A stretch of 53,394 nucleotides of DNA from an uncultured euryarchaeote (GTDB taxonomy: Archaea; Thermoplasmatota; Poseidoniia; Poseidoniales; Thalassarchaeaceae), in contig CALEIW010000242.1 in assembly GCA_937876055.1 (NCBI GenBank), positions 1-53,394 on the forward strand, given 5' to 3'. Position numbers and translations under genes: made by a program. Shown here piece by piece: positions 3,042 to 14,825 of this stretch. The notes under the pieces are model-generated. The model saw nothing but the letters and a program-made list of their open reading frames with translations, made no database searches and was not told the origin of the DNA. Positions within the stretch are counted from its first letter, which is position 1. Each line of letters opens with the position of its first letter.

Positions 3042-4234
3042 TATGAAGAATCGGCAGGATTGCTTGTTTCAGACGCACCTTCGGTGCGTTCTGGAGGTTC
3101 TTCGGTCTGCGATGAACGTCCTTCATCTTGGTATCGCCTTCGTTGCTTAGCTCTGAGATATTTCAGGGGATGGTTCATCCACTCTTGATCACACAAACGA
3201 TCATCTCCCGGATTAACAGGGCAGCGAGCACCAGTCTTCAGTGCAGAGCATCCGTGAGGCGTGTATTGGTGTTCGTAGATGTGGCCAACTTGGTATGATG
3301 TGGTCTCTGCATTGTAGTCTGGAGCGCTTTCGAAAAACGAGCAAGTAATTTCTGGCGTATGCCCCATAGCCCTTGACATTGCGGCCAAGAAAACTCGTCC
3401 TGTGTGATTGACATTGATACCTTGACTCAATTCAGCCACTGCAGATTCGAAGCAAGGCGGCCAATCCTCTCGGACGGCCGCCGTCATTGGCATCTCGGCG
3501 CTAACCCTTTCAGAGAGTAGGCCGAGAATTCGGTCGACCGGATCAGCAAAAAGACCCGCAAATGCATCATCCATCTTGTCCATGCGATCGGTACAATCCT
3601 CAGTCAAAGATTGTCTAACTCGCTCCTTCAATAGACGCGCAGTGCGCTGTTGACTATTCTCTCCGCTGGCTGAATCCATCTGAACCCAGCCTTCTTTCAC
3701 CGGCCGGTTTACCAGTCGCCAATATCCGCCGGTTATTTTTGGACAAAGTTCCAAGAAATCCACCATTGGAACATGATAGATAATTTCGGTCGTACCCGCA
3801 ACTGACTCGCTGCGAATATCCGAGAGATAGGTGCGAGCGATAATTTCGAAGTGATTCGCGTCCATTCCAAAGAGTTGGTCGGCACGACTAGATTCACCTT
3901 CCACCCAGCGATTAAGCAGACGTTCTTCGAAGGAAGCACAGACGACTAGCATGGCATGTAGGAAGGATAGAGCCTCGGTCATTCGGCCTACATCTGAAGA
4001 GAGGTCGACGGTAGTAGTCGAGTCAACTCCTTCCTTGTGAACTACTGACTCAACCAAGCGTAAACTTCCACGCCGTCTAATGTCTTCTAGCCAAGGTTCT
4101 TCGATGAGTCCCTCAACAGAAATTCCATTGGCACTTAATTGGTTTCGAATGAAATCTCGACTCTGTGGAAGGAATGGGTAGCGCGCTAGAACGGACTCAT
4201 CTTCGATGGTCGGTGGAGTGAGCGGCATTGGCAT
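3041..4234 (-). CDS. priL: DNA primase large subunit PriL
   Basis: An ARYPFLPQSRDFI N-terminal motif is present. The C-terminal Fe-S cysteines are WPPCF, ...TCSFF, ...HGCSALKTGARCP. The ORF-track start at 4267 is TTG, with ATGs at 4234 and 4228. Confidence 0.85.
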   Translation of the reverse strand: MPMPLTPPTIEDESVLARYPFLPQSRDFIRNQLSANGISVEGLIEEPWLEDIRRRGSLRLVESVVHKEGVDSTTTVDLSSDVGRMTEALSFLHAMLVVCASFEERLLNRWVEGESSRADQLFGMDANHFEIIARTYLSDIRSESVAGTTEIIYHVPMVDFLELCPKITGGYWRLVNRPVKEGWVQMDSASGENSQQRTARLLKERVRQSLTEDCTDRMDKMDDAFAGLFADPVDRILGLLSERVSAEMPMTAAVREDWPPCFESAVAELSQGINVNHTGRVFLAAMSRAMGHTPEITCSFFESAPDYNAETTSYQVGHIYEHQYTPHGCSALKTGARCPVNPGDDRLCDQEWMNHPLKYLRAKQRRRYQDEGRSSQTEEPPERTEGASETSNPADSS

Positions 4235-4301
4235 TGTAAGCCGCAATACATCGAGAGGGTATTTCAAGCCTCACCGAATCCTTCCACTGGAGAGGTATCC
4301 G

Positions 4302-5048
4302 ATGCAGACTAAACCCACCGACCTGAATCCAGTTGACGGGCGCCTGCTCGAACTTCAGGATGAGGTGCGTGAACACTTCGGTTGGGGGCTACAAGCGGAT
4401 GTAGATAGCGCCCTTGCTTTGGTTGCCAATGTAGATGATTTAGAGATTGAATCTTGGTCGAAACCTTGGAGAGCCAAAACAGTAGCTTCCTTGCACAGAA
4501 GGTTGGTCCTTCGAGATACCAAGGTTGCTATTTTGGGCGCGGCGATAACCACCGATGAAATCGAACAAGTTTTGCAAAGCAACTGCCTAATGATTGCCGC
4601 CGACGGCTCCTGCGGTGTACTAGACAAGCTACCTAATTCAGTATCAGAGCGTGCTTGGTCGCGTTTGGTTTGTATCGTTAGCGACGCGGATGGCGGAGAT
4701 GGTACAGTCGCCGCCGTCAAGCGGGGCGTTCCAGTAATTTTACACGCCCATGGAGATAATTCAGAATCATGGTCTGAATTGTTGGAATTAGCAAGTTCTC
4801 AACGCTCTCCTCCACCGATTGTACTGACTCATCAAACGCCTGAATCGATTGAAGGAATGCACAATCCTGGTGGCTTTACTGACGGCGACCGGGCAGTGTG
4901 TTTCGCTCGAGCGTTGGGAGTCGAAAGAGACAACATCTTACTTCTTGGAACTCGAACAGATATAGTAGGGGAGTGGTCAGGAGCGACCAACCCAAAACGA
5001 AAATTGGTCAAACTTCAGTGGATGGCTGAAGTTCTACAACACACTTAG
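4302..5048 (+). CDS. DUF115 / MptE-like protein (6-hydroxymethylpterin diphosphokinase-like)
   Basis: Motifs VAILGAA, IAADGS, IVSDADG and ILHAHGDN are typical of the DUF115/MptE family. The ATG at 4302 avoids overlap with priL. Confidence 0.6.
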   Translation: MQTKPTDLNPVDGRLLELQDEVREHFGWGLQADVDSALALVANVDDLEIESWSKPWRAKTVASLHRRLVLRDTKVAILGAAITTDEIEQVLQSNCLMIAADGSCGVLDKLPNSVSERAWSRLVCIVSDADGGDGTVAAVKRGVPVILHAHGDNSESWSELLELASSQRSPPPIVLTHQTPESIEGMHNPGGFTDGDRAVCFARALGVERDNILLLGTRTDIVGEWSGATNPKRKLVKLQWMAEVLQHT

Positions 5049-5065
5049 GTTTCCTAGTCTGAAAA

Positions 5066-8000
5066 TCAAAGGAAGTCGCTTAGTGTCATTACCGTCACTG
5101 TATCGTCATTGAATAGGGAATCAACGCTATCGGACAACCAATCAACGCGTTGCCTAGTGTAAAGGTCAACTCCGTAATTCTCCATAACATGTTGAGTGAC
5201 TTTGATGTATTTTCTAACAGAACCTTCCGAAACAGTAAGCGCGATTTTACCACCGCACATGGATGAATCATCTACTCCTTTGTCTAATCTATCCGCTCCT
5301 AATTTGTCCGCCTTTATACATCGACCTGCCAATGGCATTCTCCTGTATGACTGTCCGCATCTAACACAACGGACTTTCTGTCTAGTGAAAGCAACAAGAT
5401 TTCCTCTTAAATCAGGTAAGAAGTGCGATTCAATCACCTGACTTGCAACCTTAGAAACATCCACTGGACGCAACTTTGATCCTAATTCCAATTGAGCATT
5501 CATTTTGTCGACCATAGTCTCCAATGTCTTGTAGGATGAATTAGCAGGACCCGCATCTAGAGCACCGGAATCATGAGTCCAACCATATCCACGCAAGTCC
5601 CCGTAAGTGCCGAGACGATGCTCAACAATTTCGATGTGAGATTTCAACTCAGCAGGATGTGGCTGTCCTTGAGAAGCCTCATAGAATGCTCTAGGGTATT
5701 GCCATGAGCAGTCTACATTCAATGCCTCTTTGTCAATCTCGGAGGGATTCAGCCTAGTGGTCAATACGAGAGGCGCATCCATCCTTCCTCCTCGATTGGC
5801 TGGAAGAATTGCTCTTGAGAAATTCAACAAACCATCCATCAACATCATGATACTGTCCTCATCACCATCACAATTGCGACGCTTGGCTGCATGGAATAGT
5901 GGGTGGGCATAACCGGCCGATGCATCGGTCCAACCAATGATTCGACACAAAACGCCTCCAGAGGTGTGAGGTGCTAGACCAATTGCCAAATGGCCAACTA
6001 AATCATCAGCGGAGCTTACTCTGTAGAATGGTTCCATTCCATAGAATCTAGTCAGTAATTCATCGACGAAATTGCAAGTCGAAGTTAGATGCTCTATTGC
6101 TAGGGAGGAAGGGATGAAATCCTGAGGAAATAACTCAAGGATTTGTTCATCTCCGGTTAGTGGGTTACCGTCGACATCATGCGAGTATCCCAGTTTGCTT
6201 AGTATCTCCCAAGAAGTATGGATTTCAGAAGGTCGGAAATGAGTTACCGGCACATCAATCATATCGTATCTTGCGGTTCCATCTCTAAACACTGAGAGTT
6301 CATTTCTTGCTCTCAGTATGCCTTTTTCCAACGGTTCAGGTGTTTGTTCATAGGACATTAGACCCTTTACAGACTTGATTTTTTCAGGCAATCTGTCTAG
6401 GCCAAGAGAACGACGCTTTACCTCAAGTAATCCTGCGACAGGAATACTTGTTCTTTGGCCTAATCTTCGAGGAGTTCTATTTCCTCTAATCGGCCGGGGA
6501 CGAGTCTTCCCTCCACATTCTTCAGGAACAGAGGAATCCGGCCGATTATGGCATCGTAACATCGGCGATTCCATTCCGCATTTTACACAAATTCGAGGGC
6601 CGGTTTCAACTCGAATTCGACCCCGCTTTGCAGCTTCACCAAGCAAGCGCTGCGGGCCTCCATGATCGCCAATTGGGAATAATGAGTGGACTAATGGTTT
6701 CATTTGACGCCTGCTGGCTTTCTCAGGTCGACCCATTCTAGAACCAACTCGACAGGGTACTGCATCTTCCCATCTCAAATCGGATAATTTCCTGACCAGC
6801 CAAAGCGATCTATCTACCTCATGATCATCTAGAAGATGTTGTGCTGCCATCAATTCCTTCGGGTTCGACGGGCCGGGGTCTTCGATTGCTTCAGCCGCTT
6901 CGTCACCTTCTTTTTCGGTTTCGGCGATACTCATCCCTCTTTGTCGAGCGGCGGTTTGTGCTCTAACACGCTCAACATCACGCTCCGCTTCGATCTCCTC
7001 TCTCCGAACATCTTCCGCTCGTAGAGTTTCAGTCGCCGCTCTAATTTTGGCAACCCTGTCCGTAAGATGCGATACTGCGTCTGCGCGCATTTTGATTTGT
7101 GAGCCTTCTACCTCAAGTCCAAGCCCTTCCAATAGCGCTTCCCACTTTGATGGGATTACAATATCTCCACGTCGGTGGTGGTGCTGTATTCCCAGAACCA
7201 TTAGTGAAGATTTGATAACTCCGTGCGTCTCAACCTTAGTCCATCTAGGCCAAACCCCTGTTGAAGGTATATCGAGCCCGATATCCTCGAGTTTTTGTTC
7301 AGGTGACCAGCCTTGAACAACATCAGGAATCCTTAGACCCTTACTCTTGATTTTGGAATTCAACAACGCCTCGATTAATTTCCCTGCAAATGATAGTGGT
7401 AAGTCCGACCACCATGGGTTGAATGGAGGAGGGGGGGCGGTTCCGAATTTGATACAAATTCGCTTAATTTGTGACCAATCCATCTCAAGATTACGAAGGT
7501 GACGATTCCAATCCCTCTTTCGACGGACACGATCCAAAGCTGGCTCTCCACCACGACTAATCGCACCATTGAATGGCAATCCAGGAGGCAAATGTTCTCT
7601 ACTTACACCAATTATTGATGCGAATTGTTCTACTTTTTGTGGTTGATCGAGATTTTCTGCGAGGTCAGCCGCCCACCAGTCTTTATTGTAAGGAGAGGGG
7701 ACAAGATTCTTGTTATTCTCAAGGAACTCCCCAAAGCCAACTAACATCTCTCCAGAGTCCCATAGGCTGACAACTTTATCCTTGATACTATTCCATTCCT
7801 CCATCGAATCTATTCGATGGAATCCACCATCCTCGAGCAATACCATTGGCCCTTCGATATCGACGGCAGGAGTAACCGCCGCTGCTTTTCCTGGGCGCTC
7901 GACTTTCATCTGGGTTCCAACTGCTAGGAATCCCTGCATTGCTTCCATAGAAACGGGGTTTATTCCTGCCGCGGCCAATCCAGAAGCCCTACTGCGACCA

Positions 8001-11318: not shown

Positions 11319-12920
11319 ATGGCCAAACATCGGGCGGGCGACCGTCGCATAATCAGTATCAGCATACCAGAAGAGCTTGCAAGGAAGCTAGACAGAAGGG
11401 TCGGAAAAGGCCGAAATGATGGCAGATCCGCAACAATAACAAAAATGATACAAAACGGCCTGGAAACTGAGCAAACTGTAGCAATACAAACTCCAGTTAG
11501 CGAGCAAAGAAGTGCATCCGGAGTCCAAGGTGAAATCAGAATTGAAAAAGATACAATGGGAGAGTTAGAAGTCCCAGCGGATCGATACTTTGGAGCACAA
11601 ACCGCTCGCTCGCTAATCAACTTCGATATAGGCACTGACACGATGCCGCCATCTGTAATCAGAGCCTTCGGAATTCTAAAACAAGCCGCCGCAGAAACTA
11701 ATGTCGATCTCGGCCAATTAGATCCTCAGATTGGCGCCCTAATTTCTTCTGCTTGCGATGAAGTAATTTCTGGCTCATTGGATGAACATTTTCCTCTTCG
11801 AGTTTGGCAAACGGGTTCGGGGACACAAACCAACATGAATAGCAACGAAGTAATTGCTAATCGAGCAATAGAGATGGCTGGGGGTGAATTAGGTAGCAAA
11901 TCACCAGTGCACCCTAATGATCATGTTAATCGCGGTCAATCCAGCAACGACACTTTCCCAACAGCAATGCACATCGCAGCCGCCGAGGAAATCCACCATC
12001 GGTTATTGCCTGCAGTTAGATTACTACACAACTCTCTGGCAACAAAGGCGGATGAGTTCGAAAATATAGTAAAAATCGGCCGAACTCACCTAATGGATGC
12101 AGTCCCACTTACTCTTGGCCAAGAATTCGGCGGCTATGTTTCCATGTTATCATCTGATATTCGTCGTATTGAGGCCGCTTGGGACGATTTACTAGAATTG
12201 GCTCTGGGTGGTACAGCAGTTGGAACAGGCCTAAACACCCATTACGAATTCGCTGACAAAGTAGCCGATAGAATCGCCGACAAGACCCAATTACCATTCG
12301 TCTCGGCTGAAAATAAATTTGCTCAATTAGCGGCTCATGATGCAATCGTAGCTGCTTCAGGGGCACTCAACACTCTCGCTGTAAGTCTAATGAAGATTGC
12401 AAATGATATTCGTTGGATGGGTTCAGGGCCACGTTGCGGATTTGGCGAATTGTCTCTACCAGCCAATGAACCAGGGTCGAGCATCATGCCAGGAAAGGTG
12501 AATCCAACTCAATCCGAAGCTATGACAATGGTGTGCTGCCAGGTAATGGGCAACCACACAGCGATTAGCGTTGGAGGCAGTCAAGGAAATTTTGAACTCA
12601 ACGTCTACAAGCCTTTGATGATCTACAATTTACTACACAGCACTAGGTTACTTGCAGATACTTGTAGGGCCTTTACTGAGAAATGTGTTGATGGGCTTGA
12701 AGCCAATGAAGGAGTAATCGCTTCTCATCTTGAGAATAGTTTGATGCTGGTCACAGCTTTGAACAATCACATTGGATATGATAGCGCTGCAAAGATTGCA
12801 AAACACGCTCACTCAAGTGGTTCTACGCTAAGGGAGTCAGCGCTTGAACTTGGATTAGTCACAAACGATCAATTTGACCAATGGGTGAAACCTAGAGAGA
12901 TGATAGGTCCTAAAGAGTAG
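11319..12920 (+). CDS. fumC: Class II fumarate hydratase with an N-terminal ribbon-helix-helix (CopG/NikR-like) extension
   Basis: FumC homology starts at [26 protein letters not shown] (residue ~73) and includes [16 protein letters not shown]. Residues ~9-48, [40 protein letters not shown], fit the RHH pattern. There is no in-frame start codon between the RHH and the conserved EKD.MG block. Confidence 0.9.
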
Positions 12921-13101
12921 TCTAACTGGAGATAGTTCTGAACTAACGAAATCATACATTGACGGGAGAAAACCTCCGCAATGATTGATAATTAGATGGA
13001 ATGGGGCTCAGCCGTACTTTGGTACAAGGTGGGAGCAGCAGGGGGTTCTGCACATGGGGGAGCATCCCCCCCTGCTATCTCCGCAGGGTCCGGTTCCATC
13101 C

Positions 13102-13120
13102 GGGCTTGCGCCCTTTTTTT
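13102..13120 (+). terminator. GGGC-UUGC-GCCC hairpin followed by T7 (13114-13120); plus-strand oligo-T terminator
   Basis: This is the longest T run in the spacer, preceded by a small GC hairpin and by the larger G5/C7 hairpin at 13037-13076. It may terminate fumC read-through or a short RNA. Confidence 0.4.
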
Positions 13121-13307
13121 CCCGGGTAGATGACTACATTGCTCCGGAGAGCCTTTTTGTCGTTTCCCGCTTCTTCGAGGATCGCTCCCCGTTTCTGCGT
13201 TTCCATTTCCCTCCCCGGCTCTCACCGGTTTGTTCTTTGGAATGAGTGCCGGTCCTCCACGCGTCTCCGCGCTCTTGTTCCCGCTGTGTTTCCCTTAGGT
13301 TTCTTTT

Positions 13308-13327
13308 CCCCTTCCTTACGTCCGGTT
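13308..13327. repeat. Direct repeat copy 1: ccccttccttacgtccggtt
   Basis: It is 19/20 identical to 13491-13510. It is preceded by gtgtttccc, as copy 2 is by gtgttttcccc. Confidence 0.7.
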
Positions 13328-13490
13328 CTTGTCTTCCTTTGTTCCCCGCAGATTCGCCTCAAGCTTTTCCCATCTCTGGTTCTCTCGCTCTTCGCGTATG
13401 CACTCACGGTCTGGTTAGTTGGCACGGTATGCGTTTTCCCTGCCTAAGCAGTGCGGTTGTGTTTTCCCCAACTTTCCCTGTGGCTTCCTT

Positions 13491-13510
13491 CCCCTTCCTT
13501 TCGTCCGGTT
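13491..13510. repeat. Direct repeat copy 2: ccccttcctttcgtccggtt
   Basis: It is 19/20 identical to 13308-13327 and lies 183 nt downstream. Confidence 0.7.
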
Positions 13511-13781
13511 TTCTCCACCTCAGTTCGACCGTATCTCCCCTGGCCCAAGTGCCAAGTTCGATCATCCCCGGTTTCCTTGCGGTTTCCGGTTCTACCACCC
13601 CGAGTTCGGGGTTCGGTTCTGTGGCCCGCGGTGTTTGCCGAAGCTCGCACCACACCACTCTCCCAGAGCGGCATCTTTGGTCTGAACGGCGGAGGCACAT
13701 AAACATTTCGCTAAATGAGGTACTGTGGACCGGAAATAGGGGTCTAGGGATGTTAATTTCCACTGCATCCCAGGCCGAGAA

Positions 13782-14825
13782 TTATAGATTTCTTAACATC
13801 CTTAGTCGAGCTCGAAGATCTGATTTTTCAGAATATTCTTCAGGCTCTTCTTGGTGTGAATTTATTCTTCTCTGTATAACTTCAGATTCTACAAAGTAGA
13901 CTCTTCCCTGGTCATCTCCGAGTACTATTCTATTGGATGATGAATCCATCTGTCGTAACCTAGAATCATGGGATATTTTATTCGATACTTCACCAATTAT
14001 CATTATCCAAACATTCACTCCATCGAAGGAAGACGCCCAACCATTAGTTTCGACAATTTCGACTGCATCAACAGAGCCAGGTAGATTTTCTGATCCGGTT
14101 TTCATTGAGATGCTACCATCTTCATGACCAGAAATCCAGCCATCGGGGCTAGAAGCAATCGAGGTCACCAAGGTTCCCGCCTCGAGGACTGATTCATCCA
14201 ATGAATTCAAGGAGCCATCGGCGTGTCCAAAAATCAAATCTTTATTTTCTCCACAACCACAGGTGACCGGACTGTTTGTTGGTAGCGCGTTATGCTCGAC
14301 AGAGGCTTCAGGGCGAACTCTGAGATAACCGCACCTGGGTCGTCCTAATCCTAGAACGATACCCCCAGAACCATCTGAAGAAATATGCCAAGAACGTTCA
14401 GCGATTACCCAACGTTCCAATTCATTTCCCAATTTATCGAATCTCCAAATGGTGGATTCGATGAAGTCGGCGACCTCTAACTCGTAAACCGATGAGGTCG
14501 CCCAGATATTCCCATCCGCTGCTAATACGTAGTCACTTGCTCCTTCCAATTTTTTATTCCAAAGAAGCGACCCATTCTCTATGTCAACTGCATGAAGAGA
14601 ATCAGATGCTGTGACATAAACACTGCCTGAATCTACAGAGATGTCTGAAATCGGCCCGCTAATTGAAACTCTCCAACGTTCAACTCCACTGGAAGCATCC
14701 CAGGAAACAAGTAATCCATCGTGAGAGCCAGCGAATAGTAAATCCTCGACTAGAAGTAATGCGGAACAGGAGCTGGAAAGGTCTCGCACATAGGACGAGA
14801 TAGCCTCAAGGGAAAGTCCGGTCAC
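13782..14825 (-). CDS. PQQ-like / WD40-like beta-propeller repeat protein
   Basis: The pattern 'hydrophobic-x-D-x-x-x-G-x-x-x-W' repeats (SWDASSGVERWRV, AVDIENGSLLWNK, ...). There is no signal peptide. The start is GTG at 14825. Confidence 0.7.
   Translation of the reverse strand: MTGLSLEAISSYVRDLSSSCSALLLVEDLLFAGSHDGLLVSWDASSGVERWRVSISGPISDISVDSGSVYVTASDSLHAVDIENGSLLWNKKLEGASDYVLAADGNIWATSSVYELEVADFIESTIWRFDKLGNELERWVIAERSWHISSDGSGGIVLGLGRPRCGYLRVRPEASVEHNALPTNSPVTCGCGENKDLIFGHADGSLNSLDESVLEAGTLVTSIASSPDGWISGHEDGSISMKTGSENLPGSVDAVEIVETNGWASSFDGVNVWIMIIGEVSNKISHDSRLRQMDSSSNRIVLGDDQGRVYFVESEVIQRRINSHQEEPEEYSEKSDLRARLRMLRNL

Follow-up and report, generated by a model that had tools for sequence, protein, structure and literature searches.

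A predicted large structured RNA gene of Poseidoniales archaea, located between fumC and a beta-propeller gene

Few structured RNAs are both large and highly conserved, and those that are have, historically, proved to be ribozymes or the cores of fundamental ribonucleoprotein (RNP) machines. The orphan classes that await a function (OLE, ROOL, GOLLD and raiA) are, to our knowledge, all bacterial. The biochemical function of OLE RNA was reportedly not known at its discovery, and this RNA is said to work as an RNP. Here we describe a locus of the Poseidoniales (Marine Group II), which are among the most abundant archaeal groups of the surface ocean. The window, i.e. the whole stretch of DNA that was analysed, is the 53,394-nt contig CALEIW010000242.1 from an uncultured member of the Thalassarchaeaceae. 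Two convergent genes of this window, fumC (11319..12920, plus strand) and a gene encoding a PQQ-like beta-propeller protein (13782..14825, minus strand), enclose a gene-free gap of 861 nt (12921-13781). An earlier reading of the bare sequence, hereafter the original prediction, had given the same coordinates and proposed an undescribed long non-coding RNA (ncRNA) on the minus strand. We consider it very probable (about 85%) that the gap is an independently transcribed, highly structured ncRNA gene of the minus strand, belonging to an undescribed family. Conservation, covariation, the unequal wobble pairing of the two strands and the geometry of the promoter, all computed in our analysis, underlie this assignment. 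The probability concerns what the element is, i.e. a structured ncRNA gene belonging to a new family, and leaves its mechanism aside. The predicted family is one that spans the order Poseidoniales, including both of its families.

Evidence for a structured RNA gene

The relatives of this locus were gathered with the beta-propeller protein as a query against a set with one genome for each species, followed by public assemblies. They were assigned to the Thalassarchaeaceae (MGIIb) or the Poseidoniaceae (MGIIa) by their source names. All are Marine Group II contigs with the same gene order, i.e. the propeller gene, a gap of 790-1190 nt and a convergent fumC. The RNA was found between these two genes in every locus that reaches fumC, down to 29-32% identity of the propeller protein. 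At the nucleotide level, the RNA shares 97% identity with that of locus L009 (86% for fumC and 81% for the propeller gene), 95% with that of L005 (74% for the propeller gene, which is 58% identical at the amino acid level; this comparison gives no value for fumC) and 88% with that of L010 (76% for fumC and 63% for the propeller gene). The RNA is thus better conserved at the nucleotide level than both flanking genes, and therefore does not correspond to a decaying gene. Four elements are common to the 15-16 lineages examined: a promoter, a 5'-terminal hairpin (P1), a second hairpin abutting it (P2) and a long 3'-terminal hairpin.

The structure was investigated on a 10-sequence alignment covering six distinct clades. 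The consensus comprises 179 pairs, with 93.3% of the cells paired, and its energy is -332 kcal/mol in the minus sense versus -288 kcal/mol in the plus sense. Each single sequence also folds 11-36 kcal/mol better in the minus sense, with z scores of -3.1 to -4.8 against shuffled sequences. Compensatory double changes affect 46 of the 179 pairs, against 26.9±3.1 after shuffling of the columns (none of the 500 shuffles reached 46). Several helices accumulate three or four compensatory pairs each, such as the long-range closing helix of module 1 (4 out of 6) and helix 24 in module 2 (4 out of 5). The pairing is also strand-specific, with 135 G·U cells versus 29 A·C cells. In P1, the terminal G·U pair is invariant in 14 lineages and a second one is found in 12 of these 14, both of which would be C·A mismatches on the opposite strand. 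Compensatory changes and strand-specific G·U pairs therefore point to selection on an RNA fold.

The original prediction had started from the composition of the gap. The hand count of positions 13141-13680 given there (C190 and T182) is within one base of ours (A50, C189, G118 and T183 on the plus strand, i.e. 69% pyrimidine). In 540-nt sliding windows, the A fraction is on average 26.9% (standard deviation 3.6%) across the 53 kb; its lowest value, 8.5%, lies at the gap, while the minimum elsewhere is 17.4%. The lowest purine fraction (29.6%) is located at the gap too. The A-depleted island has no second example within the window. In the consensus structure, the paired positions are composed of 40% G, 37% C, 13% U and 11% A, and the unpaired positions of 57% A, 29% G, 8% C and 7% U; the single-stranded regions are thus 86% A or G, and the RNA as a whole contains 10% U. 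The island (9% A on the plus strand) exists because the helices are nearly all G-C and the linkers nearly all purine. The skewed composition is therefore a by-product of the RNA fold, not a DNA-level feature. The plus strand displays no run of three or more A between 13130 and 13698, and its seven T4-T7 runs lie at exactly the coordinates given in the original prediction. Within the RNA, one U4 run was observed when 4.1 would be expected from the composition (13 lineages). The lack of internal U4 runs was dropped as separate evidence of transcription, since composition predicts as much; what remains of this signal is the contrast with the seven runs of T4 or longer on the opposite strand.

A candidate archaeal promoter precedes the RNA on the minus strand (13698..13710). 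It is composed of a TFB-recognition element (BRE), CGAAA (13710-13706), a 2-nt spacer and a TATA box, TTTATG (13703-13698). The sequence CGAAA-NN-TTTAT is the standard euryarchaeal combination of BRE and TATA box, and the first T of the TATA box is at -31 from G13672, as would be expected of an archaeal promoter. A GAAA-NN-TTTA motif was found downstream of the propeller stop codon in 16 out of 16 lineages, Poseidoniaceae among them. GAAA and the first base of P1 are 37 nt apart in 14 of the 15 lineages matching the P1 search pattern, and 34 nt apart in L030; L028 does not match this pattern, yet its P1 starts at the same place. As the conserved BRE/TATA sits at a fixed spacing from P1, the start of the RNA is predicted at G13672, where both the conserved block and the compositional island begin. 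A start near 13755 had been proposed originally, together with a TATAAT overlapping the propeller stop codon. A TATAAT-like sequence does overlap this codon, but the conserved promoter is located about 80 nt further downstream (minus sense), and conservation lends no support to a start near 13755. The expectation of a long RNA is supported, and its length, put at roughly 0.6 kb, can be refined: the predicted core extends over 643 nt (13672 to 13030), up to the end of the terminal hairpin, and the RNA would reach about 705 nt with a 3' extension to about 12965. A BRE/TATA of its own at the right distance and a strand-specific compensatory structure are features of a generic stand-alone archaeal structured ncRNA, here with a predicted transcript.

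Some points weigh against this assignment. The transcript, its start and its end are all predictions from sequence. The long-range closing helices are invariant, and hence beyond the reach of covariation. Moreover, the pairs were counted on the very sequences that had yielded the consensus structure, which favours this structure over the slid controls (partners moved by 1-3 columns), where 5-10 compensatory pairs were found.

We then looked for signs of coding capacity. Compared with L004, the most divergent alignable relative, the RNA shows 164 substitutions spread as 59, 54 and 51 over the three codon positions, and nine separate indels, seven of 1 nt and two of 2 nt. Lineages differ in their open reading frames (ORFs), none of which retains its frame and extent throughout. 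Among the nine ORFs of the gap, eight have no match in Pfam and the ninth has one at chance level (E 0.13). The mutually overlapping ORFs had been taken for compositional artefacts, an interpretation that agrees with this absence of 3-periodicity, the 1-nt indels and the Pfam result. Public gene calls in L010, L012-L020, L028, L029 and L032 nonetheless place "hypothetical proteins" of 63-296 amino acids on either strand, none of them with a Pfam match. These calls inside the RNA gene are annotation artefacts of a stop-codon-poor sequence.

Known RNAs and mobile elements were also searched for. In line with the novelty claimed originally, no family of Rfam 15 matched at the gathering score, either in the whole window or in nine homologous loci; the families covered include RNaseP_arch, Archaea_SRP, OLE, GOLLD, ROOL, HEARO, IMES, tmRNA and rRNA. 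With E values up to 10, the copy of the window and a Poseidoniaceae copy (L021) gave only chance-level matches (14-20 bits, for gathering scores of 35-99) to animal miRNA/lncRNA and other unrelated families. The window (1-53394) contains no tRNA gene and no Rfam-recognisable RNA, and ARAGORN detected neither tRNA nor tmRNA. An RNase P-like P4 pairing of GGGAAAGUUGGGG with ACAGAACC...CCCC, noticed by eye, was rejected, both segments having other, covarying partners (helices 5 and 16). Neither tandem nor mirror repeats were found at the locus, where the only repeat is that of the internal modules. No match was obtained in 50,697 phage records. Scans of IMG/VR viral contigs with four patterns gave no match or chance matches (L022-L024, L033), and the pattern scan of metagenomes returned a single contig of 65% GC, a chance match. 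Unlike a mobile element, phage or intron, the RNA occurs once per locus, with the propeller gene and fumC invariably on its two sides, and lacks flanking repeats. Finally, no description of such an RNA was found in searches of the full-text literature, with a small chance that fragments were sighted earlier among marine "psRNA" groups.

Architecture and variation across the family

The predicted core (13030..13672, minus strand as for all elements below) runs from the first base of P1 to the CUCCCA past the terminal hairpin. It is organised as two stacked 5' hairpins, a multi-branched body and a 3'-terminal hairpin of 14-19 bp ending in CUCCCA. P1 (GCCGCUCU-GGG-AGAGUGGU, 13654..13672) folds in 16 out of 16 lineages, with the family consensus GCYRCUC-loop-GAGUGRU; 99.1% of its cells are paired across 14 lineages, and three of its pairs show compensatory changes. 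P2 (13628..13653), directly stacked on P1, folds in the same 16 lineages and combines a UUCG-type loop with a variable stem, of which many different sequences exist (four compensatory pairs for this helix 2 in the 10-sequence alignment). The 5' core (13533..13627) contains helices 3-10, i.e. strands of closing helices and three local hairpins. The strands GGGCC (13623-13627) and GGUAGA (13591-13596) are invariant, so covariation speaks neither for nor against them, and the hairpins at 13597-13612, 13568-13589 and 13533-13562 all covary.

Two related modules follow. Module 1 (13406..13532) is closed by a helix between 13527-13532 and 13406-13411 and carries the hairpin CCGGAC-GAAA-GGAAGG (13493-13508); four of the six pairs of helix 11 are compensatory, and helices 12 and 16 covary too. 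Module 2 (13244..13405) carries a second purine hairpin, CCGGAC-GUAA-GGAAGG (13310-13325), and the hairpin GCGCG-GAGA-CGCGU (13259-13272); compensatory changes affect four of the five pairs of helix 24, two of five in helix 31 and three of four in helix 22. The modules are visible as an internal repeat, 13289-13327 versus 13473-13510, with a spacing of 183 nt, and two copies of CYGGACGNAAGGAAGG occur in the RNA of the window. In each module, a covarying closing helix surrounds an invariant purine-rich loop holding a CY-GGA-C-GNAA-G-GAA-GG hairpin, in which the loop differs at the N of GNAA and the Y-G pair alternates between C-G and U·G (408:421). In addition, GGGAA and GGAAA each occur 12 times in the 643 nt, about 3-fold more often than in shuffled sequences, and 67-73% of these positions are unpaired in the consensus.

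The 3' core (13086..13242) comprises helices 32-41, with hairpins at 13201-13242 (including 13215-13228), 13176-13191, 13141-13152 and 13102-13113, and the return strands of the closing helices, UCUACC (13125-13130) and GGACCC (13086-13091). It is followed by the 3'-terminal long hairpin (13030..13085), with the layout GCGGAG[stem, C-rich apical loop, GAA, stem]CUCCCA. Its continuous stem of 14-19 bp is present in 15 out of 15 lineages examined; the sequence of this stem exists in at least six versions, and the hairpin covaries; the flanking GCGGAG and CUCCCA are invariant. A pseudoknot between the C-rich apical loop and the purine modules was considered and rejected, as the complements lie at non-homologous sites and the difference between L021 and L025 is not compensatory. 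Beyond the core, a 3' extension (12965..13029) kept only in the clade of the window contains a GUAC-CAAA-GUAC hairpin (13014-13025), UUAUCAAUCAUUGCGGAG and a GGAG-GUUUU-CUCC hairpin. The U4 run at 12969-12972, the first oligo-U past the core, is a probable terminator on sequence grounds. This run lies 57 nt past CUCCCA in the window, and U4-U5 runs lie 3-10 nt past it in L015, L019 and L032, while several lineages have no U4 for at least 60 nt.

Of the hairpins drawn by eye in the original prediction, two appear in the consensus with covariation: CGCG-GAGA-CGCG in module 2 (13259-13272) has two compensatory pairs, and ACCCCG-AACU-CGGGGU (13597-13612) has one, its CCCC/GGGG being replaced by UCCG/CGGA in another clade. 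The hairpin GCUC-UCCG-GAGC (13141-13152) is retained on weaker terms, with one compensatory pair and 85% of the cells paired. A proposed stem of seven pairs out of eight (13217-13224/13243-13250) has no place in the consensus, where the same bases form the hairpin 13215-13228 and the pairing of 13244-13249 with 13400-13405.

Across the family, the length of the RNA ranges from 640 to 1231 nt. The Thalassarchaeaceae-type copies contain 6-13% U and purine modules; in the Poseidoniaceae copies, the U content is about 16-21% and UUCG-capped hairpins replace the purine modules. Many compensatory changes separate the Poseidoniaceae-type copies L021 and L025. The purine module is present in 2 copies in the clade of the window (1 intact copy in L004), 6 copies in L012 and L014 and at least 7 copies in L013. 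Such variation concerns even very close relatives: L025 and L026 encode an identical propeller protein and their RNAs differ by one 52-nt unit, extra in L026; the propeller protein is likewise identical between L012/L014 and L013, which has at least one extra module, though the L013 sequence holds a run of N. The module array thus changes on the time scale of strains. The RNA of L007, 1231 nt long, contains a duplicated segment of about 320 nt with a second terminal hairpin.

In each Poseidoniales locus, a covariance model of P1-P2 with a stated structure recovered a single strong site, located on the expected strand; only one was found in the 53-kb window, and unrelated control loci gave no match. 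It also matches L007, left out of the training (E 1.5e-7). This model replaced a previous one (R1), whose automatic structure mis-paired P1 and which missed the distant subfamilies except L007 (E 0.9 at best for L025 and L026). The L007 contig (PBPU01000093.1, 6.4 kb), labelled Acidimicrobiaceae bacterium RS349, presents a propeller homologue, an archaeal promoter, P1 and the RNA at 3802-6285; it was placed in an actinobacterial bin, but very probably belongs to the Poseidoniales. An apparent 758-nt insertion in L002 (3493-4250) was rejected as a scaffold chimera with an N-run; the chimeric join, inside the RNA gene, carries a second, divergent copy of the 3' end of the propeller gene. The N-run of L013 is located at about 4900-5030. 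Repeats at the RNA locus appear to break short-read assemblies.

An inverted repeat, CAGUGGAAAU...(18 nt)...AUUUCCGGUC, is located between the propeller stop codon and the RNA promoter (13728..13765, minus strand). Its core, GGAAAT/ATTTCC, was found in every lineage aligned, Poseidoniaceae included, plus L032 and L007. The arms are perfect in four lineages with differing flanks (CTGG/CCAG, CCGG/CCGG, GTGG/CCAC and TTGG/CCAA) and contain mismatches in the others. It might form a hairpin at the 3' end of the propeller mRNA, or serve the RNA gene as a binding site for a regulator. On the other side, the T7 run at 13114-13120 is the first T-run past fumC on the fumC strand and is located some 200 nt within the RNA gene; transcription of fumC may hence extend in antisense into the 3' part of this gene before it stops. 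The run is kept in the clade of the window only.

With regard to the neighbouring proteins, the beta-propeller protein (pI 4.6) has Pfam matches to PQQ-like propellers only. Its acidic character and these matches leave it unsupported as an obvious RNA-binding partner. The fumC product is a class II fumarase with an N-terminal extension of about 65 amino acids and pI 10.8 (11319-11520, plus strand). This extension looks like a ribbon-helix-helix (RHH; CopG-type) DNA-binding domain, with a weak Pfam match to RHH_1 (E 0.005). It is nearly invariant in all Thalassarchaeaceae-type loci; in L021, an RHH-like segment precedes the called start, and L025 lacks one. Fusion of a fumarase to a DNA-binding domain is unusual, and the fumarase gene in question adjoins the RNA gene.

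Possible functions and rival explanations

The purine-rich loops are invariant, have no partner in the pairing, recur within the RNA and vary in copy number, and might thus be binding sites displayed on a constant frame. On these grounds, we tentatively propose, at somewhat less than an even chance, that the RNA would work as the scaffold of an RNP, or as a multivalent platform to which one or more proteins bind. As in sponge or scaffold RNAs, several copies of a motif are located in unpaired regions, and the number of units varies while P1, P2 and the terminal hairpin are constant. The "sponge" suggested in the original prediction would be compatible with such repeated modules of variable copy number. 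Other observations tell against a scaffold. The neighbouring propeller protein is acidic. The 16-nt motif of the modules occurs nowhere else in the 53 kb. In addition, the repeated unit differs between the families, with purine modules in one and UUCG-capped hairpins in the Poseidoniaceae; for this reason, the essential function may reside in the constant 5' and 3' elements, the middle being made of expansion segments.

Next after a scaffold comes an RNA that assembles by itself or acts as a catalyst with no protein partner, i.e. a ROOL/GOLLD nanocage-like particle or a ribozyme, in which the GNRA loops and A-rich junctions would make tertiary or intermolecular contacts. The very high conservation, the multi-branched architecture with long-range helices, the many GNRA-type loops (GAAA, GUAA, GAGA and GCAA; loops are 57% A) and the palindromic CCGG recurring in the modules all fit such an RNA, and large ornate bacterial RNAs are reported to form RNA-only homo-oligomers (PMC12286853). 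However, a module number varying from 2 to 7 between close relatives and a module type differing between families would be unusual for a catalytic core or a fixed cage, and the one candidate long-range loop contact examined shows no covariation, so that we regard this explanation as rather unlikely. It is more improbable still that the gap is a cis element of its neighbours, which would be a long structured 3' untranslated region (UTR) in the propeller mRNA or would regulate fumC through antisense or convergent transcription. The order propeller gene, RNA and convergent fumC is indeed kept throughout the order while the outer neighbours change, the RNA and the propeller gene are co-oriented, and read-through from fumC up to the T7 run inside the RNA gene could overlap it by about 200 nt in antisense. 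Against a 3' UTR, a BRE/TATA lies between the propeller stop codon and the RNA in all lineages, at an essentially fixed distance from P1, and the conserved block starts at P1 instead of at the stop codon. Against an antisense regulator, the T7 run is not kept outside the clade of the window, and the RNA ends 46-100 nt from fumC in other clades.

The two alternatives raised in the original prediction itself are disfavoured by the selection on the fold and by the high conservation. A DNA-level element, such as a polypurine/polypyrimidine tract prone to triplexes or R-loops that would buffer convergent genes or prime replication, would account for the extreme strand asymmetry (69% pyrimidine on the plus strand), and purine-rich transcripts do form stable RNA-DNA hybrids. 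But the compensatory changes and strand-specific G·U pairs point to the RNA fold, neither a mirror-repeat tract nor a tandem repeat was found, and the cumulative GC skew has no turning point at the gap. Moreover, promoter, P1, P2 and terminal hairpin are all retained in the Poseidoniaceae copies and in the L020 and L030 lineages, where the skew is far weaker (17-21% U in the core). Such an element is therefore very unlikely. Hardly any credence can be given to a decayed or unusual coding gene, encoding a low-complexity protein rich in K/E/R/G or P/S/F/L, or to a pseudogene. The sequence is open in all six frames, and public annotations contain ORFs of 63-296 amino acids on either strand, but the substitutions lack 3-periodicity, lineages differ by 1-nt indels, no frame is kept and Pfam gives no match. 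A nucleotide conservation above that of functional neighbours is the opposite of decay.

Comparison with described RNAs

Taken as a whole, we rate as slightly better than an even bet that this is the first "ornate large" ncRNA class native to Archaea: an order-wide, vertically inherited RNA of 640 to more than 1200 nt, with a conserved end-frame and an evolvable array of modules, forming either the core of an unknown RNP or an RNA-only assembly or ribozyme. Such a class would have been overlooked so far because gene callers fill the locus with spurious ORFs. If this is true, an orphan class universal in Marine Group II would be a new object for archaeal RNA biology, in uncultured but globally abundant hosts. 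It would also provide a sensitive, lineage-specific marker transcript for metatranscriptomes, and the changes in module number at the strain level would be a natural experiment in the growth of large RNAs by duplication. The annotation of many public contigs and metagenome-assembled genomes, in which hypothetical proteins are called on either strand, would have to be corrected.

Among the described systems, OLE RNA from Bacillota resembles this RNA in its length of about 600 nt, its intricate multi-branched fold with long invariant stretches, its restriction to one lineage and its conserved genomic position. It differs from the RNA described here, which is archaeal, has a BRE/TATA promoter and variable repeated modules, is flanked by beta-propeller and fumC genes and not by oapA-type genes, and has no Rfam match. 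ROOL and GOLLD, found in bacteria and phages, are likewise complex RNAs of about 580-800 nt with many hairpins capped by stable tetraloops, but the RNA of Poseidoniales matches neither Rfam nor phages, and is chromosomal, single-copy and syntenic across an order. Archaeal RNase P RNA and signal recognition particle (SRP) 7S RNA share with it a high GC content, a BRE/TATA of their own, vertical inheritance across the order and a conservation above that of protein genes. Our RNA is nevertheless about twice as long, and the RNaseP_arch and Archaea_SRP models do not match it even with E values up to 10; inspection by eye likewise revealed neither the conserved P4-forming regions known from RNase P nor a helix 8 motif like that of SRP RNA. 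Finally, CsrB and RsmZ, which bind CsrA, and CrcZ, which binds Hfq, display short unpaired motifs repeated in variable number on a structured frame, and are encoded by stand-alone genes ending in a strong terminal hairpin, as is predicted here. These RNAs are bacterial, measure about 100-400 nt and carry GGA or A-rich motifs with named partners, whereas the frame of the Poseidoniales RNA is large and highly conserved, and its repeated unit differs between two archaeal families. An RNP scaffold in Poseidoniales would thus resemble CsrB or CrcZ in its way of working, without being a member of those families.

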